From contig OZ245040.1 in assembly GCA_965224195.1 (NCBI GenBank), forward strand, positions 1,728,001 through 1,792,000: 64,000 nt of DNA, in the 5' to 3' direction. Each line of letters opens with the position of its first letter. Within the stretch, counting starts at the first letter, position 1. Origin of the DNA: Nitrosopumilus sp. Lineage in GTDB: Archaea; Thermoproteota; Nitrososphaeria; Nitrososphaerales; Nitrosopumilaceae. This document shows, one piece after another, positions 1-9,830 of the stretch. The position numbers and the translations under genes are program-made. A model generated the notes under the pieces. That model was not told the DNA's origin, ran no database searches, and saw only the letters and a list, made by a program, of their open reading frames with translations.

Positions 1-3000
1 ATATGGCCCCCTTGTCTGCTCCATCAGTGTCATCAAGGTCCGCACCTGCCACAATATCTGGTATGCCATCATCATCCAAGTCGCCAATCAGTGCAACTGA
101 GGAGCCGAACTGGTCGCCATCAAATACTTCTGCATCATCAGGGCCGCCGCCGCCGGGGGAGGCAGAGCTGTCAATCACTTTAGTCGCCTTTACTGAGCCG
201 TCAATGTTGTTCATGAGCAGGACGTATACGGCGCCAGTATCAGCTTTTCCTCCGGCAGCTCCCTGTACGCCCACTGCGATATCTGGGGCACCATCACCAT
301 TGATGTCGCCAATGCCTGCAACTGAGGAGCCAAACTGGTCATAGTCAAGTATTGTGGGGACGTTTGCAACAGTATCGTCAATCCTTTTGGTGCTACTTAC
401 TGTACCATCAGAGTTCATGAACAAGATAAATACGGCGCCACCGTCATCGGCTGTATCACTATCCCTTTCTGCGCCCACTGCAATGTCTGCGGTGCCGTCG
501 TTATTCAGGTCTCCAATGTTTGCCACTGATGAGCCAAAATAGGAATAATCTGAGATGGTGGGGCCGGAGTTAGTAGAACCGTTGATCTCAACTGATCTCT
601 TTATCGAGCCGTCAGCATTCATGAGCATGACAAATATGGCGCCATCGTTAAAGTAATTTGTGTCAGCCAGTGGCGCGCCTGCCACGATATCTGGGATGCC
701 ATCACCGTCAAGGTCGCCAATGCCTGCAACTGAGTAGCCAAAGTTGTCATCATCTGAGAGGACGGGGCCGTTTGCAGTGGAATTTTTGATTGGACTGTAG
801 CTTTTTGCGGTACCGTCAGGGTTCATGAACAGGACGTATACGGCGCCAGTATTAGTCGTACGGCCATTGTTATCATCCTGATATGCGCCCACTGCAATGT
901 CTGTGGTGCCATCACCATCAAGGTCTCCAATGGATGCCACTGAATAGCCAAAGCCGTCATGGTCAGAGAGGTAGTAATTATTGCTGCCAAATTCGGGGTT
1001 ACTGATCTGGGCTGTTCTCTTTATAGTGCCATCACGATTCATAAATAAAATGTGGATGGCGCCCTTGTCAGTTCCTCCATGATCATCCTTGTATGCGCCT
1101 GCTACAATATCTGGGATGCCATCACCATCAAGGTCACCTATTCCTGCAACTGATGCGCCAAACAGGTCGCCATCAGAGAGGATGGGGCCGTCAGCAGTAG
1201 TGTCATCAATCCTTTGGGTGCTTTTTACTGTGCCGTCAGCGTTCATGAACATGGTGTAGATGGCGCCCTTGTAGATATCATTTGGATTTTGAGAATTGAT
1301 ACCCACTGCAATATCTGCGATGCCGTCGTCGTTGATGTCGCCAATGCCTGCAACTGAGGAACCAAACTGCTCTTGGTCGAAGAGGACGGGGCCGTTTGCA
1401 GTGGAATCGTCAATCTTTGCGGTGCTCTTTACGGTACCGTTAGTGTTCATGAGCATGACAAATACGGCGCCCCTCCTATCACCTCCGGTGGGATCCCCTG
1501 GTGCACCCACTACAATATCTAGGACACCATCACCATCCAAGTCTCCAATGTTTGCCACTGATGTGCCAAAATAGGAATAATCGGCGGGGACGGGGCCGGA
1601 GTTAGTAGAACTGTCAATCTTTATGGTGCTCTTTACCGTGCCGTCAGTATTCATAAATAAGACGTATACGGTACCCTTGTTGTCATTGCCTGGTGCACCC
1701 ACTGCAATGTCTGTGGTGCCGTCATTATTCAGGTCACCAATGCCTGCAACTGATGCGCCGAATTTATCATAATCGGCGAGGGCAGGGCCGTCTGTAGTAG
1801 AATCGTCAATCTTTATGGTGCTCTTTACTGTACCATCAGAGTTCATAAGTAAAATGTGTATGGCGCCCCTGCCATCACCTCCGGTGCCATCTACTGGTGC
1901 GCCTGCTGCAATGTCTGAGACGCCATCATCATCCAAGTCTCCGATTAGTGCGACTGAAGAGCCGAATTCATCATCGATGGAGAGGACGGGGCCGTTTGGA
2001 GTAGAATCGTCAATCTTTACAGTCTCTTTTACTGAACCGTTAGTGTTCATAAGTAAAATGTGTATGGCGCCCTTGTCTCGTCCTCCGGTGTCATCGTAAT
2101 TTGCGCCTGCTACAATATCTGGGATGCCGTCGTTATTCAGGTCACCAATTGATGCTACTGATATGCCGAATCTATCATCAGTGGAGAGGGTGGGGCCGTT
2201 TAAAGTAGAACTGTTGATCTCAACTGATCTCTTTATGGTGCCGCCAGTATTCATAAATAAAATATGTATAACACCGGTGCCGGCTCCTCCATGATTATCC
2301 TGGTATGCGCCCACTGCAATATCCTCAACGCCATCACCATCAAGGTCGCCAATGCCTGCAACTGAGTAGCCAAAGCGGTCGCCATCAGAGAGGATGGGGC
2401 CATCAGCAGTAGTGTCATCAATCTTTACAGTCTCCCTTGCGCTGCCTGTCCCATGCGGGGCAATGGCATCAAGATAGATGATGTGTACGGCCCCTGTGTT
2501 AGATCCCCCATCATTTGTGCCCTCATAAGGTGCGCCTACTGCAATATCTGGCATGCCATCACCATTAAGGTCGCCAATGTTTGCCACTGATGTGCCGAAA
2601 TTCGAATCACTGCCAAAGACAAGGCTGTCTGTGGTAGAATCGTCAATCTTTGCAGTACCATTTACTGTACCATCAGAGTTCAAAAGTATAATGTAGATGG
2701 CGCCGCTGTCATTGCCTGATGCGCCAACTGCAATATCTGTGGTGCCGTCAGAGTTGATGTCTCCAATGGATGCCACTGATGCGCCAAAAAAGAAATAATC
2801 TGCAAGTGAGGGGGGGCCGTTTGTGGTGGAATCGTCAATCTTTGCGGTGCTCTTTACGGTGCCGTCAGTATTCATGAATAAGACGTATACGGTACCCTTG
2901 TTGTCATTGCCTGGTGCACCCACTGCAATGTCTGCGATGCCGTCGTTATTCAAGTCTCCAATGTTTGCCACTGATAAGCCAAAATAATTAACTAGATGGG

Positions 3001-4747
3001 AGGCGACAGTTGTACCAAAGTCGTCAATCTTTTGGGTGCTCTTTACTGTACCATCAGGGTTCATAAATAAAATGTGGATGGCGCCCTTGCCAGATCCTCC
3101 GCCGGAATCATTATTTGATGCGCCCACTGCAATATCTGTGGTGCCGTCATTATTCAGGTCACCAATGCCTGCAACTGATGCGCCAAACATGTCATGGTTA
3201 GCAAGTACAAGACTGGCTGTAGTAGAGTCGTCAATCTTTACGGTGCTCTTTACTGAACCATCAGTGTCCATGAGCATGACGTATACGGCGCCCCTGTAGG
3301 ATCCTTGAGTGCTGGTAATGCTTGCACCTGCTACAATATCTGGGATGCCATCACGATTCAGGTCTCCTATTCCTGCAACTGATGCGCCAAAATCATCACT
3401 ACCGACGATATCAGTAGGACCGTTGGCAGTGGAACCGTTGATCTCAGCTGTTCTCTTTATGGAGCCATCAGGGTTCATGAACAGGACGTGTACGGCGCCA
3501 GTGCTGGCTGCCACAGTGAGGCCTCCAGTCAAACCCACTGCAATGTCTGCAGTACCGTCGCCGTCCAAGTCTCCTATTCCTGCAACTGATGTGCCAAAAT
3601 AGGAATCATCTAAGAGTGGGGGAAGATTTGCAGTAGAGTTGTTGATTTTTACAGGAGGGGCAGTGGAGCTCGGATATGCATAGTTGTTTGCATATGCCAC
3701 ACTGTCACCAAACTCTAGCTTTAGGTGGTGCTTTCCGGGGGTGTGGACCAGCATCTCAAAGGAGCTGGTGGTGCTGTCACCTGAGTAATCTGGAAATACG
3801 ACAGACGTTATTTTGGATTCATCATCATAGACAAACTCGGGTGCAATCATCATGTTGCTGTTACTACTGATATCTGAACTATACAGTGAGACAAACTCCA
3901 GGTCATCAGGCAGCCCCGTCCCAAAGCTGGTCCCGTTGACTGCAGATATCACCAGGTCGTGTGTTCCCTCTGTTACAAAGTCTACAGTCCAGTGTCCTCC
4001 CACAGCAGGATATGACTGCTCATTTAGCACCCTGATGCTGCTGCTGCCGTGCTGCTGCATCTCCGAAAGAAACTCTTGCACTGCTGTTTTCTCATGGCCG
4101 CTCAGAGGCCTGTTGTTGCCAGGGCTGTCATAGCTGGCATTATTATCATAGCTGGCATTATTATTATCATATCTGGCATTATAGCTGGTATCATACAGCG
4201 AGTCAGCCAAGGCATCCAAATCTGCTCCGTACAGCACAGAGTCCTGCAAATCCTGATACTGCTGATACTCACCTGTAATAGAATCAAGAACAGGCCAGGA
4301 GCTGCTGCTGTTGTTGTTGTTGTTATTGTTGTTGTTGGCACTGTTGTTACTGCCATCTAAATCACCCATGCCTTCAGGTGGATATGCAAACGCGTGCTGG
4401 ATTGGAGAGAAGGTCAGTCCGATTGGGCCAAGCATGCTACCAGACACAAACACGATGCAGACAAGCACGGCAAGGGATCTTTTCAGAAAAGGGCGGCTGT
4501 CGTATCTGCTTGGCAGCATGCTTGCAAGCACAAAGATTCCTGGCGCAACTACAAAGAGCACGTAAAAGTGTGCAGAAGGCGACTGCTGATTCCACAGCAA
4601 AATCCCCTGAGACTCTGATGAGGAAGAGCCTGCAGGATGCGGCGTGGCCTCATTGTACACAGTCTCCTGTGCAGATACGGGAGGCATGCCAGACAATGCA
4701 AGAACTGTAAAAAGCAAAAACAGCAAAAAGACACTCTTTGGAGCCAT
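1..4747 (-). CDS. Giant secreted/surface protein with >=18 FG-GAP (integrin-alpha-like) repeats; runs off the window (>1580 aa)
   Basis: Hand translation from ATG at 4747: MAPKSVFLLFLLFTVLALSG signal peptide, two more hydrophobic segments, an Asn-rich tract, then repeats of FGxSVAxIGDLDGDGxxDIAVGA...GAVYxLFMNxDG every ~200 nt. Absent from the ORF track, probably because no stop lies in the window. Confidence 0.9.
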   Translation of the reverse strand, partial: MAPKSVFLLFLLFTVLALSGMPPVSAQETVYNEATPHPAGSSSSESQGILLWNQQSPSAHFYVLFVVAPGIFVLASMLPSRYDSRPFLKRSLAVLVCIVFVSGSMLGPIGLTFSPIQHAFAYPPEGMGDLDGSNNSANNNNNNNNNSSSSWPVLDSITGEYQQYQDLQDSVLYGADLDALADSLYDTSYNARYDNNNASYDNNASYDSPGNNRPLSGHEKTAVQEFLSEMQQHGSSSIRVLNEQSYPAVGGHWTVDFVTEGTHDLVISAVNGTSFGTGLPDDLEFVSLYSSDISSNSNMMIAPEFVYDDESKITSVVFPDYSGDSTTSSFEMLVHTPGKHHLKLEFGDSVAYANNYAYPSSTAPPVKINNSTANLPPLLDDSYFGTSVAGIGDLDGDGTADIAVGLTGGLTVAASTGAVHVLFMNPDGSIKRTAEINGSTANGPTDIVGSDDFGASVAGIGDLNRDGIPDIVAGASITSTQGSYRGAVYVMLMDTDGSVKSTVKIDDSTTASLVLANHDMFGASVAGIGDLNNDGTTDIAVGASNNDSGGGSGKGAIHILFMNPDGTVKSTQKIDDFGTTVASHLVNYFGLSVANIGDLNNDGIADIAVGAPGNDNKGTVYVLFMNTDGTVKSTAKIDDSTTNGPPSLADYFFFGASVASIGDINSDGTTDIAVGASGNDSGAIYIILLNSDGTVNGTAKIDDSTTDSLVFGSDSNFGTSVANIGDLNGDGMPDIAVGAPYEGTNDGGSNTGAVHIIYLDAIAPHGTGSARETVKIDDTTADGPILSDGDRFGYSVAGIGDLDGDGVEDIAVGAYQDNHGGAGTGVIHILFMNTGGTIKRSVEINSSTLNGPTLSTDDRFGISVASIGDLNNDGIPDIVAGANYDDTGGRDKGAIHILLMNTNGSVKETVKIDDSTPNGPVLSIDDEFGSSVALIGDLDDDGVSDIAAGAPVDGTGGDGRGAIHILLMNSDGTVKSTIKIDDSTTDGPALADYDKFGASVAGIGDLNNDGTTDIAVGAPGNDNKGTVYVLFMNTDGTVKSTIKIDSSTNSGPVPADYSYFGTSVANIGDLDGDGVLDIVVGAPGDPTGGDRRGAVFVMLMNTNGTVKSTAKIDDSTANGPVLFDQEQFGSSVAGIGDINDDGIADIAVGINSQNPNDIYKGAIYTMFMNADGTVKSTQRIDDTTADGPILSDGDLFGASVAGIGDLDGDGIPDIVAGAYKDDHGGTDKGAIHILFMNRDGTIKRTAQISNPEFGSNNYYLSDHDGFGYSVASIGDLDGDGTTDIAVGAYQDDNNGRTTNTGAVYVLFMNPDGTAKSYSPIKNSTANGPVLSDDDNFGYSVAGIGDLDGDGIPDIVAGAPLADTNYFNDGAIFVMLMNADGSIKRSVEINGSTNSGPTISDYSYFGSSVANIGDLNNDGTADIAVGAERDSDTADDGGAVFILFMNSDGTVSSTKRIDDTVANVPTILDYDQFGSSVAGIGDINGDGAPDIAVGVQGAAGGKADTGAVYVLLMNNIDGSVKATKVIDSSASPGGGGPDDAEVFDGDQFGSSVALIGDLDDDGIPDIVAGADLDDTDGADKGAI

Positions 4748-4856
4748 GGCTACCAAGACTCCGCCGTCGTCATGCCATCAAGAAAGGCAGAACTTTGGGC
4801 TATAAAATATTCAAATATACTGGCAATGGGAGTCTCGCGTCTGACCTCTCTCTCTT

Positions 4857-4868
4857 CCCCCCCCCCCC
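4857..4868. repeat. C12 homopolymer (G12 on coding strand) ~110 nt upstream of the FG-GAP gene
   Basis: ctctt-cccccccccccc-ga read directly. Confidence 0.9.
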
Positions 4869-4995
4869 GAATCAGTGATAGGCAAGATATAAGCAACATG
4901 CACATATTAACCAGAAAACACACGTATTTAATCATTTTGTAATCTGGGTTTTGTGAAGTTACAGTGACCTATTTTCCCTTGTGAAGTTTGGTGAC

Positions 4996-5436
4996 CTATT
5001 GAAAATGACTTTGTTTATTAGGATCATCTTTTCCTTTTAATGTTTTTAGTATTTCTTGCAGAGTTCGTAAAATTAAATCATTTTGTTGTTCTATGTTTTG
5101 TAGCGAAAAGTATGAATCCTGTGTATTTGCAAACATGACAAATTTTCTCCAAAATTCAGAATTAATACGAATTGTGTCAAGTATAGTTTCAAGTTGAGAT
5201 TCTGAAAAATTAGATGATTTACATATTTCAGTAATTCTTTTTTCAGATAAATTTGATCTGATTGCCTCGTTCATAAAAGTACGTGTAATGTTGGATATTG
5301 CTTGTATCTGCGATATTGAGATGTCTTGTTCCTTACTTAGTTCCTTATGAGATTTTCTTTCAACCCATATTTCATTCATACATTTTGGAAATTTCTTCTT
5401 AAATTCATCGTCGGAAATTTTAGATATTTCTTTCAA
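4996..5436 (-). CDS. Hypothetical protein
   Basis: 146-aa AT-rich ORF, no recognised motif. Confidence 0.6.
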   Translation of the reverse strand: MKEISKISDDEFKKKFPKCMNEIWVERKSHKELSKEQDISISQIQAISNITRTFMNEAIRSNLSEKRITEICKSSNFSESQLETILDTIRINSEFWRKFVMFANTQDSYFSLQNIEQQNDLILRTLQEILKTLKGKDDPNKQSHFQ

Positions 5437-5542
5437 ATCATATTGAAGTGTTGGTGCTTGTTCAATAATATTTTTTACAAATAAAATAGAGCATGTTTCT
5501 TCAAGTCCTAAATCAAATAATTTATTAGAAATTGTTGTTTTA

Positions 5543-5881
5543 TCATAATTTGAATATAGAAGTTCTATTCATGTCAAAAAACAAAATAATAGGAGCTACA
5601 TACGCATTGACACTTGTAGGCTTCAAAGTTTTCTTCAAAATTTTGATATAAGATTTCACAAGATCAGTGCTTTTCCCAGCATCAAAATTAGCTAATGCAT
5701 TATAATCATCAAAATGTGAAACATATTTTTTATCAACAAGATAATTCATAAAATTTTTCAGACCACAAGTATATGATTTCAAAGGGGCTTCAGTTTTGAT
5801 GGCATCATAAAAATTACCATATTCAATGTTTTCCTCAGATAGTTCTAATGCTCTTTGTAATTCGACCTTACTACTAACCAT
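5543..5881 (-). pseudogene. Truncated tyrosine integrase (N-terminal core-binding/SAM-like domain only)
   Basis: FYDAIKTEAPLKSYTCGLKNFM...TSVNAYVAPIILFFDMN resembles the N-terminus of thaumarchaeal phage-type integrases; stops at 112 aa with no catalytic R-HxxR-Y. Confidence 0.7.
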
Positions 5882-5892
5882 ATTATCTAGGC

Positions 5893-5980
5893 ATAACTAA
5901 TTAATTATAAAATGTTGTTTTTAGTATAGTTAATTGTTATGATATGCATGAAAAATGACACAAAATCATTAACCGTTTAG
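5893..5980. repeat. Putative recombination site 1 (left arm - AATTGTTA core at 5932-5939 - inverted right arm)
   Basis: 5893-5939 aligns ungapped 34/47 with 7343-7389; reverse complement of 5951-5980 matches 7343-7372 at 22/30. Confidence 0.75.
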
Positions 5981-6069
5981 ATGGGCGATACCAAAAGATT
6001 ATGCAATACAACAATTGAAAAAATTTCAAATTATACACATATTTACTAAATAAATCAAAAAAATAGAAA

Positions 6070-6980
6070 ATGTCCAAAAATGAAGATAAGGAATTAGATA
6101 ATACAGATAAAAGATGGCTCAGAGGTTTTATCTTAGATCATTTGGAGGGATCTAATGGGGTTTTCTTACGAGATTTTGCAAAGGAATTTGATTGTGAATG
6201 GATTCTAAGTTCAAATCAATATTTTGAAGACATACCAAGACAAACAGACGATTGATTGATGAAATAGGATCAGAAATTGAAAAATTTGCAGATATTTTTG
6301 TAGAGACATTCCCCACATCAAAGAATATAGTTTACAGCAGATTGGAAAAATACTTAGAAGAAGAAGGATACAAAATAGAAATTAAAACGGATTTAGTTCC
6401 GTTTGTAAAAGATGGAGAAACCATACAAATTCAGATTCTAAATAAAACTACACTCAAGATAGTGAAAACATTGATTACAAATACTGGAAAATCACAAGAA
6501 AGACTACCAGAAACATTTGGGAAGTTTGAAGAGCCCATGTTAAGAGATATGATGTTAGTTGTGTTAAATTCCGTATTCACAGGTTCTGCAACAGGAGAAA
6601 CTTTTAGTGGAAGTGGTAAAGCTGATATTTTTATTAATTTTAAAGATTTTAAATCGCCCATAATAGAATGTAAATGGTGGGACGGTCAAGAGACAATAAA
6701 CGATGCATTTGAACAATTATTTGCATATAACACACCAAATGAAGGGGATGGAATAATCATAATGTTTTCAGACAGAGTAGATTATTCAGAAGTAGAAACA
6801 AAAGCTGAAAAATATATCAAAAATCATTCATCATTCAACAACAATTCTATTAAAAAAAATGAAGGATGGTTAATTTCAAAGCATGATCATCCACAAGACA
6901 ATTCAAAAAAAATGAACGTTCATACCAAAATTTTCAACTTACATCACATAGATACAATTAGTAAAAAGAATCCAAATTGA
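6070..6980 (+). pseudogene. PD-(D/E)xK restriction-endonuclease-like protein, probably one gene split by a 1-nt frameshift at ~6252
   Basis: ATGETFSGSGKADIFINF...IIECKWWDG motif in 6252..6980; one extra T at gacgattgattgat fuses the two ORFs (RQTDD-LIDEIG). Two coupled genes is the alternative. Confidence 0.6.
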
Positions 6981-6996
6981 AAATATTTACAGCGAA

Positions 6997-7332
6997 TTAT
7001 TCAAAAAAATCACATTGAGCCAAAGTTATCAATGGGAGTTCACCCACATAACATTGGCATCCAAAGAACAATTTCACAATTTCTGCAGATGTAATCCCTA
7101 CACCCATTCCTACAAATAAAGATCGGAATAAAGCAAATATTTTTGCCTCTTTAAAATAACTGAGAATACCTGTAATTACGATAAAAGTAAGCAAAACACC
7201 ATAAGAATATCTAAAAAATGGAATAGATTCAAGATGAAATGATACACCACAGTATTGAGTTGTCAACACAATAGTTCCCAATCCGACTAAAGAACCAATA
7301 ATTAAAATGAAAATCTCAAGTATGCTTTTCAA
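6997..7332 (-). CDS. Small membrane protein (~3 TM)
   Basis: Three hydrophobic stretches in 111 aa. Confidence 0.6.
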   Translation of the reverse strand: MKSILEIFILIIGSLVGLGTIVLTTQYCGVSFHLESIPFFRYSYGVLLTFIVITGILSYFKEAKIFALFRSLFVGMGVGITSAEIVKLFFGCQCYVGELPLITLAQCDFFE

Positions 7333-7342
7333 CGTATTAGTT

Positions 7343-7429
7343 ATAATCGGTTAATTATAAAGTGCCGTTTTTGTGTGAGTCAATTGTTACCAACCAAGAA
7401 AAAATGGCACATAAAGATTATACCCATTT
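7343..7429. repeat. Putative recombination site 2 (left arm - AATTGTTA core at 7382-7389 - inverted right arm)
   Basis: gtgccgttttt ... aaaaatggcac dyad around the core; 39/47 ungapped identity to 8644-8690. Confidence 0.8.
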
Positions 7430-7467
7430 GTACACACAATCGTTCAAAAACAAGAAATCATTTAAAA

Positions 7468-7731
7468 TCAATCTGAACCATATGTGGATTTATGATCTCC
7501 TACTCTCATGAAATCAATTGTTTTTTTAAAAAAATCAACATCGTAAATGATCCTATTGCTTTTATCTAGTCTATAGGCATACACATTCATAGATTTTTTA
7601 AAATCTCCCAAAAGTCTAGGATCATCACTTAACAGGAGTTCTTTGATAGCATCATTTGTTTTGTCTTGTAAAGTATGCTCTAATTTTTTGAATTGTTTTT
7701 TGAACTTTCCTTGTCTATTGGGAGTCCACAA
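7468..7731 (-). CDS. RelE/ParE-superfamily type II toxin
   Basis: 87 aa, basic; FKKQFKKL...YAYRLDKSNRIIYDV...FMRVGDHKSTY. Confidence 0.8.
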   Translation of the reverse strand: MWTPNRQGKFKKQFKKLEHTLQDKTNDAIKELLLSDDPRLLGDFKKSMNVYAYRLDKSNRIIYDVDFFKKTIDFMRVGDHKSTYGSD

Positions 7732-7733
7732 AA

Positions 7734-7997
7734 TTAATCGTTTAGATCATTGATAAAATCATCGACAGTACTAAACTTCTTTGTATTTTCAGAGTTAGAT
7801 CTATATTCATTAATGTCATTAATTTCTTCATTACTTAGATCATCATAATCTCCAAGGGATTTAGTACGTGAATCTAATATTTGCTTGTAATTATCATTAG
7901 CAGTTGTTGATAATTGCAAATCAGTTAATCCAGATACACGAACAAAATCTCTAAATTCTGTTTTGTTTCTTTTAAGAAGCTGCACCATTTGTCTCAC
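7734..7997 (-). CDS. Putative antitoxin
   Basis: Small ORF directly upstream of the toxin; acidic C-terminus KKFSTVDDFINDL typical of RelB/DinJ-like tails. Confidence 0.7.
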   Translation of the reverse strand: MRQMVQLLKRNKTEFRDFVRVSGLTDLQLSTTANDNYKQILDSRTKSLGDYDDLSNEEINDINEYRSNSENTKKFSTVDDFINDLND

Positions 7998-8619
7998 TTA
8001 TTGTTTGTAATACCTCTTTTATAAAATCAGCTCCAAATTTACTGATAAAATCATTAAATGCGTCATATTTTACAGTTCTAAAAATAAATTCAATGTATAG
8101 AGATTCAGTAGGACTAGTAGCTAAAGGTTCCATTCTAATTTGCATATCTACTTCCGAAACATCCGTATTTGCAACTACGACAGAAAGTATCCCAGGTTTA
8201 ATATTCAATTTATCTGCCAAGCTAGATTGGACATTAGGATTCAAAATATGATTTAAAAATAGTTGCGGATTACCATTATCTGTAACAAAAGTTTTGAAAT
8301 TCCCTCCCAATACAGCTATGTTCTCAGGTTTGAAACTTAAGTTAGCAAGTAATTGTGAGAAATCAGAATATTTCGTTTGTAATGAAATGGTATTACGTAA
8401 TCTTAGTGTAATAGTATTTTGTTTAGAATTATTGAAAATAATGGTGTCTTCTTTTTGATAATATGTCTGATTATTATTTTGTGTATCTATTTTTCTTTCA
8501 TAATTACCATCAAGCATAAGTTGATTAAATTGGGTTTCAGAAAATAATGGATATTTGCCCTGAATTGCAATATCACAGGAAGCACCTACTTCAGATACGT
8601 TAACCATAATTGATAACAA
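7972..8619 (-). CDS. Hypothetical protein, first gene of the three-gene TA operon (possibly TIGR04255-like)
   Basis: 215 aa ORF overlapping the antitoxin start; family guess is weak. Confidence 0.6.
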   Translation of the reverse strand: MLSIMVNVSEVGASCDIAIQGKYPLFSETQFNQLMLDGNYERKIDTQNNNQTYYQKEDTIIFNNSKQNTITLRLRNTISLQTKYSDFSQLLANLSFKPENIAVLGGNFKTFVTDNGNPQLFLNHILNPNVQSSLADKLNIKPGILSVVVANTDVSEVDMQIRMEPLATSPTESLYIEFIFRTVKYDAFNDFISKFGADFIKEVLQTISETNGAAS

Positions 8620-8643
8620 AAATAGGATTACTTAAATCAGATC

Positions 8644-8690
8644 ATAATCGGTTAATGAAAATTCGCCGTTTTTGTGAGAGATAATTGTTA
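8644..8690. repeat. Putative recombination site 3 (left arm + core only; island boundary abutting the pus10 stop codon)
   Basis: ataatcggttaatgaaaattcgccgtttttgtgagagataattgtta followed directly by tca (TGA of pus10). Confidence 0.8.
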
Positions 8691-9830
8691 TCATTGTATC
8701 TCAATCTCAAGGAAATCAAATTCCCTACATTCACAGGGAGTATCAAGAATAGTTGAAATTCCAGGTATAACATCATCGCCAATAACAAATCGTTTGATTG
8801 GAAGGCCTCCTTCAGCCTTGATTATTAAAGTAAACAGATTCTTTGAATTTTTCTTAAATTTCACATCAAAAATTTTCTTCTCGGAACGTTTCCCAGACTT
8901 TTCATAGACTATCACAGGACTAATTGTGAGATCTTTTAATTTTTTAAGACTTTTAGAATCAATTTGAGAATCAGTAGAAATTTTTACACTAATAACAGAA
9001 TTGAATTTAAGAGGTTTTTTTGGAGATTCATAAACTGATTTTAAATTATTGATTTTGATAGAATCAACAACAATATCAGATAATTTTACATTTCTTTTAT
9101 GAGGATTTTGTATTTTTACAAAAAATGGCCTCCCGTTTCCCAAAACCAAACTAGATTTATCCTCACCACCAATCCATGTGAATTTTGCAGTTGTACCTCC
9201 AAATTTTTGAAAAACTAGTTTAGAGATTGCACCCTCCACACTGTCATATTCTGCAATGCCATGAAAATCACAAACTCGACATCCTTTCCCAGAACAATTA
9301 TCACATGACTTTTGTTTTTGAGAAAAACCTCTCTCAGATTTTAGATATCGTCCAGAAAGAGTGATAGATTTAGAACGTAATTCGCACAATTCATCTTTAA
9401 AATTCATAGTAAGCATGACATCTGGATCAAGATGATCAATTATTTTTTTTGTCTTTTTAGAATATAGTTTTCCTATTTCGTTAGTAATGTCAGTCTTGAT
9501 GCTATCAATTCCTTTTAATTTATACTCAGATCTAATAAAATCATCTCTATCTACAATGGAGGGTTTCATCATAGCCCCAATACCAAATGTTTTAAAAGAA
9601 TAGTCAGCAGATTTATCAAGCATTTGTTTTAAAAAATGATGCAGATTTTCAAATAGATTTTTACACACATAGCATTTTTCTGTAGAGTCTTGATTTAATT
9701 TTTTACCAAGAAGTTTATTTGATGAAAGGTGTAATTGTTTTGAAAATAGTCGACCTAAACAATAATTGCATAAATTATATTTTTTGGTAATTTTATTTGC
9801 AATAGGAATAATTTGTTGATAATTAGACAT
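8691..9830 (-). CDS. pus10: tRNA pseudouridine(54/55) synthase Pus10-like
   Basis: LCNYCLGR Zn site, THUMP-like region, GGED...LGNGRPF, EGGLPIKRFV; next to srp54. Confidence 0.85.
   Translation of the reverse strand: MSNYQQIIPIANKITKKYNLCNYCLGRLFSKQLHLSSNKLLGKKLNQDSTEKCYVCKNLFENLHHFLKQMLDKSADYSFKTFGIGAMMKPSIVDRDDFIRSEYKLKGIDSIKTDITNEIGKLYSKKTKKIIDHLDPDVMLTMNFKDELCELRSKSITLSGRYLKSERGFSQKQKSCDNCSGKGCRVCDFHGIAEYDSVEGAISKLVFQKFGGTTAKFTWIGGEDKSSLVLGNGRPFFVKIQNPHKRNVKLSDIVVDSIKINNLKSVYESPKKPLKFNSVISVKISTDSQIDSKSLKKLKDLTISPVIVYEKSGKRSEKKIFDVKFKKNSKNLFTLIIKAEGGLPIKRFVIGDDVIPGISTILDTPCECREFDFLEIEIQ

Follow-up and report, generated by a model that had tools for sequence, protein, structure and literature searches.

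What places three direct copies of a 47-nt sequence, separated by unrelated genes, behind a conserved archaeal gene? The question is raised by a 64,000-nucleotide stretch of Nitrosopumilus sp. (GenBank assembly GCA_965224195.1, contig OZ245040.1, forward-strand positions 1,728,001 to 1,792,000; termed here the window, with positions counted from its first letter), in which the copies abut the end of pus10 (8691-9830, minus strand), the gene for the tRNA pseudouridine synthase Pus10 (Pfam Pus10_C, E = 1.5e-22; Pus10_THUMP_arc, E = 2e-15). Comparison of these sequences with those of related genomes lends good support to the view that the repeats are tyrosine-recombinase attachment sites, for which pus10 is the chromosomal target, and makes it likely that the array arose by tandem accretion--that is, by successive integration of elements that use one and the same attachment site at the end of pus10.

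A repeat search of the window returns one family of direct repeats with three copies (5893-5942, 7343-7392 and 8644-8693), of which copy 1 is 70% and copy 3 is 82% identical to copy 2. The copies are spaced 1450 and 1301 bp apart, and all three end in AATTGTTA (5932-5939, 7382-7389 and 8683-8690), the core, just as an initial annotation made from the sequence of the window had described. A 24-nt pattern built from copies 2 and 3 (allowing up to 3 mismatches) matches only those two copies in the window, where 0.01 matches are expected, and reached two or more matches in none of 100 shuffles; copy 1 is too diverged for this pattern. A looser 23-nt pattern occurs exactly three times in the 2.07-Mb genome (termed G000), with 3 forward and 0 reverse matches as compared with 1 + 1 for a backwards control.

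The anatomy of the sites is best understood in terms of a bipartite 24-nt arm (consensus GGTTAAY-N8-GYYRTTTTW), which forms inverted pairs at copies 1 and 2 and which, with at most one mismatch, occurs at four places in the genome: 1733951 on the minus strand and 1735349, 1736650 and 926542 on the plus strand. In its strict form the pattern has 4 matches in G000, and its backwards control, without mismatches, has none. The two arms of a site are termed here P and P', and the core between them O. Copy 1 (5899-5974, plus strand) is a full junction, consisting of a P' arm at 5899-5922 (2 mismatches), the core at 5932-5939 and a P arm at 5951-5974 (0 mismatches), with a centre of 28 nt between the arms. 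Copy 2 (7349-7423, plus strand) likewise is a full P-O-P' junction, with one arm at 7349-7372 (0 mismatches), the core at 7382-7389, the inverted arm at 7400-7423 (2 mismatches) and a centre of 27 nt. Copy 3 (8650-8690, plus strand) is a half site of the type termed attL (the left attachment half site, as opposed to attR, the right one), in which a P' arm (8650-8673) and a 9-nt spacer precede the core AATTGTTA at 8683-8690; it has this single arm and none on the pus10 side, where the core lies directly against the TCA at 8691-8693 that is the pus10 stop. Thus the inverted arms at copies 1 and 2 and the one-armed copy 3, noticed at the outset, are recovered with defined 24-nt arms. The layout of copy 3 also adjoins pus10 in G013, G135, G405, L092, L198, L218 and L230 (where G and L denote genomes and loci; loci from different collections may be the same records). 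The P' arm of copy 1 is diverged, and its P' side is part of an integrase-bearing element, while its P arm and core share 96.6% identity with the right end of the L218 element over a length of 58 nt.

When 27 site instances are compiled, the P' arm is found 9 nt from the core in 13 of 13 cases, and the P arm, seen 14 times, lies 10-11 nt from it. Among these instances attL always keeps the core and P', and attR always keeps P and the core, which would place the exchange in the centre of the site, in or at the 8-bp core. The shared repeat reaches ATGATAACAATT in many elements.

Each copy also lies directly upstream of a minus-strand start codon (5881, 7332 and 8619), and the N8 of the P' arm contains TATAAA in copies 1 and 2, L092, L218 and G198, about 24-27 nt upstream of the first start codon--a position suggesting that the first gene has its promoter in the P' arm. 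One might therefore read the 47-nt repeats as nothing but a promoter or operator shared by three leftward genes, a reading to which the start codons downstream of every copy and the TATA-like box in two of the three copies lend some color. A plain promoter, as the initial annotation recognized, should turn up in front of ordinary core genes; the motif, however, occurs nowhere else in the genome. Moreover, its halves are found split as attL and attR, an integrase gene lies beside it in other genomes, and the relatives of this strain possess both empty and occupied alleles of the site, which contradict this reading and leave it a negligible probability.

These alleles were defined as follows. 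Orthologues of pus10 are present in 100 of 101 genomes of the genus. Among 30 pus10 loci of the genus, 18 consist of the stop codon, TAACAATTAACTAG, about 20 nt and the ATG of a 30-aa basic protein (for which Pfam returns no family match); one more is of this empty type after an extra stretch of 66 nt; four (G000, G013, G135 and, with a variant arm, G198) carry an arm behind the core; and seven are of other kinds. A gene for a 235-aa protein, which is the next in line to be conserved, serves as a ruler for the distance from pus10, inasmuch as the two lie close together on one contig in 86 of the 101 genomes. The gap between them is 171-192 nt in 70 of the 86, 228-307 nt in 4 and 402-16050 nt in 12, and these three classes are, respectively, empty sites, intermediate spacings and insertions. 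(In the remaining genomes the two genes are far apart on the same contig, as in G000 and G182; on different contigs, as in nine genomes including G156, which is empty by sequence; or one of the two was not found, as in four.) The presence/absence breakpoints fall exactly at the core. Hence the empty site that the initial annotation had predicted for relatives exists, the inserted content varies from genome to genome as it had also anticipated, and its proposal that the repeats are sites of site-specific recombination with an 8-bp core agrees with both the half sites and the alleles that break there. It had erred, however, in naming rpl21e as the usual neighbor of pus10: in this genus the genes for the 30-aa basic protein and the 235-aa protein follow, and rpl21e is located at 1878308, 141 kb away.

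The occupied sites differ widely. In G013 a single unit follows pus10, in the order stop codon, core, P' arm, 1.1 kb with two open reading frames (ORFs) of no known family, P arm, core and basic-protein gene. The metagenome contig L218 shows this layout too, its single unit holding four Usp genes and an integrase remnant of 83 aa. The 178-bp insert that separates pus10 from the basic-protein gene in G178 (L266; G178:C11:34800-35300) contains no gene, being made up of three arm-like sequences and a degenerate core, and looks like an emptied pair of units. Going by their ORF sequences, further inserts at this site differ greatly in content and include a 15.9-kb island with a heavy-metal P-type ATPase (L261, G140), a 1416-aa protein (L256, G137), and a TFB-like factor with a small DNA-repair-like ORF (L263, G145). 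As a separate observation, the core, in the form TAACAATTAA, lies about 27-36 nt upstream of the basic-protein ATG (G000:C1:926577-926614; empty sites L024-L052), by which position the attachment core may coincide with the TATA box of that gene.

The sites are rare. A P arm with core is present in 7, and a P' arm with core in 5, of 151 genus genomes, without matches to the controls. The full junction, defined as the core between the inner halves of the two arms, was met in a single one of 401 genomes of the family (98 of them of this genus), namely G000, which has two such junctions. Across 121 family genomes the site pattern gave mostly chance-like matches at a rate like that of the control, with G013 alone real. 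A scan of metagenome and viral sequences for an arm with a degenerate core (at least 120 metagenome loci and 5 viral loci) found an arm with an exact core in 9 of 125 loci among the matches listed; of these nine, L135, L198, L218 and L230 were studied, while L143, L197, L220, L227 and L248 (GC 0.37-0.50) were taken for chance and set aside. The exact core was found in none of the five viral contigs.

Direct repeats can, of course, also arise by local segmental duplication or by homologous recombination without any integrase, and a dispersed repeat of 298 nt with five copies does lie nearby (4700-4997). Here, however, the common sequence is confined to the 47-80-nt sites, the contents of the intervals are unrelated, and the same sites bound unrelated cargo in other species. 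Such an origin is accordingly very improbable.

A recombinase that could act on these sites is indicated by the truncated gene at 5543-5881 (minus strand), whose start lies 11 nt from copy 1 and whose product corresponds to the first part (residues 1-112, the N-terminal SAM-like/core-binding domain) of a tyrosine recombinase about 400 aa long; the integrase fragment that had been noticed beside copy 1 is thereby supported. This 112-aa ORF matches the first 112 residues of proteins of 284-448 aa, the identity reaching 82% across 99% of the ORF. Sixteen of 160 candidate proteins match it at E ≤ 1e-3, and two of the sixteen are named integrase by their source; Pfam gives no integrase match for the ORF itself. 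In an alignment of 31 diverse members of the integrase family, R161, R285, R287, H309 and Y317 are invariant, and the corresponding profile matches the XerA structures 5hxy (E = 3.8e-7) and 4a8e (E = 5.3e-6). PF00589 is matched by 17 of the 31 (best E = 1.9e-11), several of which also match N-terminal SAM-like domains. The cognate integrase P0001 matches the NCBIfam model XerA_Arch with E = 2.2e-8, under the cut-off of that model, and the best NCBIfam match of the integrase, to a XerA/integron-integrase model, scores 34 bits against a cut-off of 220. An hhalign comparison with a PF00589-positive integrase of the same genome aligned the region of the box-I arginine alone, at 3.6% probability. 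Taken together, these results identify the fragment as the predicted DNA-binding domain from the N-terminus of a divergent tyrosine recombinase whose catalytic domain is missing here. Nucleotide homology to the full integrase gene of L092 ends at 5549. A contig of another sequencing run (X2; same organism label, other sample) matches the window up to 5554 and then continues into sequence that a search of G000 showed to be absent from this genome, and the segment 5515-5541 resembles the copy 1 arm (23 of 27 nt). The break in the integrase near 5549-5554 may be a strain-variable junction.

Intact relatives of this gene occupy the position at which the fragment is found. In both L230 and L293 (the latter from G405), a full 415-aa integrase gene lies next to pus10, with 16-17 nt between the P' arm and its start; downstream of it, G405 has genes for a ParB-N-like protein and a DNA methylase. 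In L092 (Nitrosopumilus sp. LS_AOA) an integrase of 82% identity has the same position by pus10 and runs to the contig end at residue 323. In L135 an arm-core-arm site is immediately upstream of a 405-aa integrase gene and could be either a free attP (the element-borne attachment site) or a tandem junction. Association of the motif with an integrase elsewhere, on which the initial annotation had staked its case, is thus found. Within G000, integrase paralogues elsewhere in the genome share 42-46% identity, and a homology search of the genome found no intact cognate integrase. Integrase stumps at the pus10 site of the window, G198, L198 and L218 show that loss of the integrase after integration is common there. 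Nine insertion intervals in genus genomes yield no PF00589 match at E ≤ 0.01, and a tblastn search with two family members against 13 stretches matched only the G198 stump.

Where, then, is the other end of the array? The initial annotation had expected a half site consisting of the core and a right arm to the left of the window. Such a site does exist, although it lies 807 kb away and in inverted orientation. The flank that follows pus10 in close relatives maps, with 93% and 90% identity, to G000:C1:926576 onwards on the plus strand, whereas pus10 itself is at 1736694 on the minus strand; directly before this normal flank are GGTTAATAAAAAATTGCCGTTTTT, 11 nt and TAACAATT (G000:C1:926542-926584, with the core at 926577-926584). 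By its sequence this is evidently the normal attR that matches the array. From the distance and the opposite orientation of the attR and the normal downstream genes it follows that the array was probably split by an inversion of about 807 kb, one break of which would lie inside a third, integrase-bearing element. The array side is contiguous from 4953 to 9300 in one 5845-nt contig of run X1, and it is this side that read support for contiguity covers. Before the displaced attR (G000:C1:925243-926584; L053 17243-18584) lie an ORF of 107 aa and a gene of the Fic/Doc family (145 aa, E = 1.8e-11), and fragments of IS-like (insertion-sequence-like) transposases occur 4-6 kb further left. In two other genomes pus10 and its usual neighbor are likewise separated (610326-611471 versus 2183808-2184506 in G182:C1; contigs C4 versus C8 in G405), so that rearrangements at this locus may recur.

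The mechanism that best accommodates these findings would operate as follows. A lineage-specific tyrosine recombinase of about 400 aa would recombine an element-borne site, consisting of a P arm, 10-11 nt, TAACAATT, 9 nt and a P' arm (the two arms being inverted and reading GGTTAAT-N8-GYYRTTTTW), with a chromosomal site, consisting of the pus10 stop followed by TAACAATTAACTAG. The crossover would take place in or at the 8-bp core, and pus10 would therefore stay intact. A first insertion would generate attL (core and P' arm) at one end and attR (P arm and core) at the other; each later insertion into either of these would then create a full arm-core-arm junction between adjacent units. Proceeding away from pus10, the order would be attL (copy 3), a mini-element A, copy 2, a mini-element B, copy 1 and finally an element whose integrase is cut after codon 112. 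As a history, this would imply integration, decay of the integrase, further integration and, later, inversion. What is established directly comprises the sites themselves, both kinds of allele (empty and occupied), the place that the integrase takes and the attR in its displaced position. The position of the crossover within the core, by contrast, is deduced from which parts each half site keeps, the arms are presumed to be the integrase-binding sites, and units A and B presumably either arrived as mini-units or shrank in place. Because these two units are without a recombinase, they could be moved only by an integrase supplied in trans; and because the only cognate integrase copy in the genome is broken, the array is probably fixed today.

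Mini-element A (7390-8682, minus strand; 1301 bp from core to core) comprises three ORFs, of 215 aa (7972-8619) and 87 aa (7734-7997), neither with a family match, and a RelE/ParE-like toxin (7468-7731; RelE_StbE TIGR02385, 28.3 bits against a cut-off of 27.9; ParE-like, E = 3e-4), all on the minus strand. The same three-gene order occurs in G351 (75% nucleotide identity over 861 nt), where a transposase-like ORF interrupts it, and at a further G137 locus (30% protein identity); no arms or cores were found near these copies (L277 and L278, respectively). Because the module (215 aa, about 90 aa and RelE-like) is kept as a unit at these other chromosomal places, it suggests a tripartite toxin-antitoxin-like system of unknown type. 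Mini-element B (5940-7381, genes on both strands; 1450 bp from core to core) comprises two genes: a 111-aa membrane-protein ORF (6997-7332, minus strand) without a family match, and a candidate defense gene (6070-6255 and 6252-6980, plus strand) that PADLOC relates to PDC-S54 and that is frameshifted. The larger part of the latter matches PDC-S54 with E = 1.1e-40 over profile positions 235-407 of 410 (the C-terminal 173), and no homologue was found in any of 150 other genus genomes at E ≤ 1e-8. Contigs of run X2 have an extra A behind 6247, by which the frameshift may be private to the strain of the window. Pfam, NCBIfam and PADLOC return nothing for the 215-aa, 87-aa and 111-aa ORFs, for a 61-aa ORF or, beyond weak matches, for a 146-aa ORF located farther from pus10 (see below). 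Neither interval yields a recombinase, a PF00589 match or an integrase-family match in Pfam, NCBIfam and family-homology searches, as had been claimed for both, and a homology search likewise found no integrase remnant inside either unit.

Several observations weigh against tandem accretion. No C-terminal part of the integrase was found near attR by homology search, so that more than one rearrangement would be needed, and the breakpoints of the 807-kb inversion were not located, as DNA synteny searches gave only fragments. No circle, deletion joint or alternative junction at any core appears in the contigs of four public runs, contigs being a form of data that drops rare forms and so does not speak against excision. 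The cognate integrase P0001 and its close kin miss PF00589 at E ≤ 0.01, and a 13-member integrase profile found no recombinase in the PDB, the wider 31-member profile alone having done so. Finally, the insertions at this same site in G137, G214, G194, G145, G158 and G183 are without arms, and more than one kind of element or process must therefore use the spot.

A more ambitious interpretation is that of a dedicated cassette system, in which small, promoter-bearing, integrase-less cassettes, as an evolved class of non-autonomous elements, are captured and stacked in trans by a pus10-specific integrase, in functional analogy to an integron. The 9-nt spacer between the P' arm and the core speaks for this possibility, inasmuch as it falls into two classes. 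The first, GTGnGAG(TC/AT), is common to units A and B (window copies 3 and 2), G013 and G178--all four of them without an integrase--and occurs in none of the nine other P' ends, the spacers of which end in AGTT (AGCT in G140) and seven of which lie beside an integrase gene or stump. The four units that share this mini-class spacer differ in cargo or carry none, which hints at a trans-mobilized cassette lineage. The units are also compact, measuring 1.1-1.45 kb and having 16-44 nt between the arms and the outer genes; unit A's cargo is known from other places that lack arms; and the TATA-like TTTATAATTAA in the P' arm of copies 1 and 2 could represent the built-in promoter. (Unit B is of mixed type, its P' end belonging to the mini class and its P end to the L218 type.) On the other hand, full junctions are confined to the single genome noted above and mini-class ends to 3 of 151 genus genomes; the integrase stumps in the window, G198, L198 and L218 indicate that decay in place is common; the G178 arms without a gene between them are what a deletion would leave; G000 has no full-length cognate integrase; circles and joints are, again, not seen in the run contigs, which drop rare forms; and the numbers are small and the genomes related. 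A dedicated system of this kind therefore appears unlikely. Doubtful, too, though still worth entertaining, is the corresponding evolutionary proposal, namely that Nitrosopumilus-type archaea harbor a lineage of minimal cassettes that a pus10-specific tyrosine recombinase inserts, stacks and reshuffles in trans at a conserved 8-bp site. If this were true, each cassette would combine a pair of 24-nt arms bound by the integrase with a promoter of its own and with one to three genes as cargo, typically for toxin-antitoxin or defense functions, and the whole would amount to an integron-like gene-capture device with a different site logic, in which the crossover is central and half sites occur at both cassette ends. 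The initial annotation had gone as far as to propose a candidate undescribed gene-capture system; of this, a trans-mobilized class of mini-units is indeed hinted at, but the term is overstated, because full junctions occur in only that one genome of the family and because the arrangement attL-element-P-O-P'-element-attR is what tandem integration by an ordinary integrase gives.

Outside the array, pus10 is followed in the window by SRP54. On the other side, the 146-aa ORF of unknown family (4996-5436, minus strand) lies between the integrase stump and the 298-nt dispersed repeat, and its membership in the third element is uncertain; it has no homologue in the other loci compared. The five genomic copies of the repeat are 86-99% identical, and the end of the copy at 4700-4997 coincides exactly with the stop of the 146-aa ORF. 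Positions 1-4756 (minus strand) cover the 5' portion of a gene whose product, a repeat protein, exceeds 1585 aa; this portion has a GC content of about 49% as compared with 33.6% for the genome, and the 298-nt repeat spans the start of the gene.

Accretion at the end of pus10 would be of interest in several respects. It defines an integration hotspot in globally important ammonia oxidizers, comprising a conserved target, a compact site of about 80 bp on the elements and an integrase family that goes with it. Because, to our knowledge, no genetic system exists for the ammonia-oxidizing archaea of this group, the trio of integrase, attP and attB (the chromosomal attachment site) provides a concrete starting point for a site-specific integration tool. 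The array also shows how streamlined archaeal genomes gather small modules for defense and toxin-antitoxin functions behind a core gene, and it raises the question of whether mini-units without an integrase spread in trans.

How does the array relate to known systems? By the measure of an island flanked by attachment sites, the core TAACAATT is found at attL (8683-8690), at both junctions, at attR and in the empty sites of relatives; by the measure of a decayed element, units A and B keep arms and cores on both sides and are without integration genes. The array is neither an integron nor a pdif system, to which it had been likened in function, inasmuch as each reading fails a defining feature. 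In place of an IntI-type integrase with attI and a common promoter, the array has an integrase of a thaumarchaeal family and, at its head, the pus10 stop codon; and the exchange, judged by attL and attR, each of which retains one arm and the central core, would be central rather than at one end of a folded palindrome (the sites themselves not having been folded); on this last point the initial annotation had rightly set the sites apart from attC, the core motifs of which the arms presumably do not fit. For pdif/Xer-dif modules, which have 28-bp dif-like sites of 11-6-11 architecture in alternating orientation on which the host Xer acts, the sites described here are too different, being 76-80 bp long and having 24-nt bipartite arms, a 27-28-nt centre and one orientation. 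An SSV-type (class I) integrase, which has attP inside its gene and would be split into N and C parts upon integration, was also considered as the origin of the stump and was dropped, because the site here lies outside the integrase gene, upstream of where translation starts; L230 and L293, with the element integrated, carry an undivided gene, and the break that ends the window's stump has no relation to a core.

With integrons, including those of archaea (bioRxiv 10.1101/2022.02.06.479319), the array shares stacked small units, imperfect palindromes, an adjacent tyrosine recombinase gene and promoter-proximal cargo in its units; it differs in that the crossover would be in the centre of the palindrome rather than at one end, in that each unit has a half site at both ends, and in that it sits in a conserved chromosomal attB without an IntI-type integrase, attI or common promoter. 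Nearer at hand are the cryptic integrated elements of Thaumarchaeota (Krupovic et al. 2019, PMC6563490). According to the portions of that study and of PMC8371274 drawn upon here, 14 of 68 integrated elements lie in the 3' ends of protein genes, attachment sites may measure no more than 8 bp, elements are known to form tandem arrays, and integrases disappear once integration has taken place. The pus10 array resembles them in having tyrosine-recombinase elements at the 3'-distal part of a protein gene, short attachment sites, empty sites in sister species and a tandem arrangement; yet those elements are defined by their integrase, the smallest being 2.6 kb (PMC6563490), whereas the pus10 array includes two units without one. 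The available text of PMC6563490 does not name pus10 among the targets, three of which are given only as hypothetical proteins and could include it, and a literature search found no paper linking Pus10 with integration. What appears to be new relative to the earlier reports is the occurrence of two very small, complete, integrase-less units and of an end class common to three genomes.

The closest parallels, as judged by analogy, would be two bacterial systems. The first is the accretion of cis-mobilizable elements (CIMEs) with integrative and conjugative elements (ICEs) related to ICESt1/ICESt3 of Streptococcus thermophilus (PMC5704250). In the sections of that article considered, a single attachment site at the end of a protein gene likewise receives units that have attL and attR and no integration genes and that stand in tandem with an integrase-bearing element, with hybrid internal attachment sites and gene capture by accretion; the pus10 array differs in its archaeal host, in showing no conjugation genes, in its far smaller units (1.1-1.45 kb), in its thaumarchaeal recombinase family and in its compact attP of about 76-80 bp. 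The second comprises the tycheposon islands of Prochlorococcus (bioRxiv 10.1101/2020.12.28.424599), which, in the part of the preprint at hand, also concern a streamlined marine host, in which repeated integration at one site pushes older elements inward and leaves attachment-site repeats between units, fragmented integrases and cargo for defense or adaptation. Tycheposons, however, target tRNA genes, belong to other integrase and element families and have been shown experimentally to excise, whereas the pus10 array is known from its sequence.

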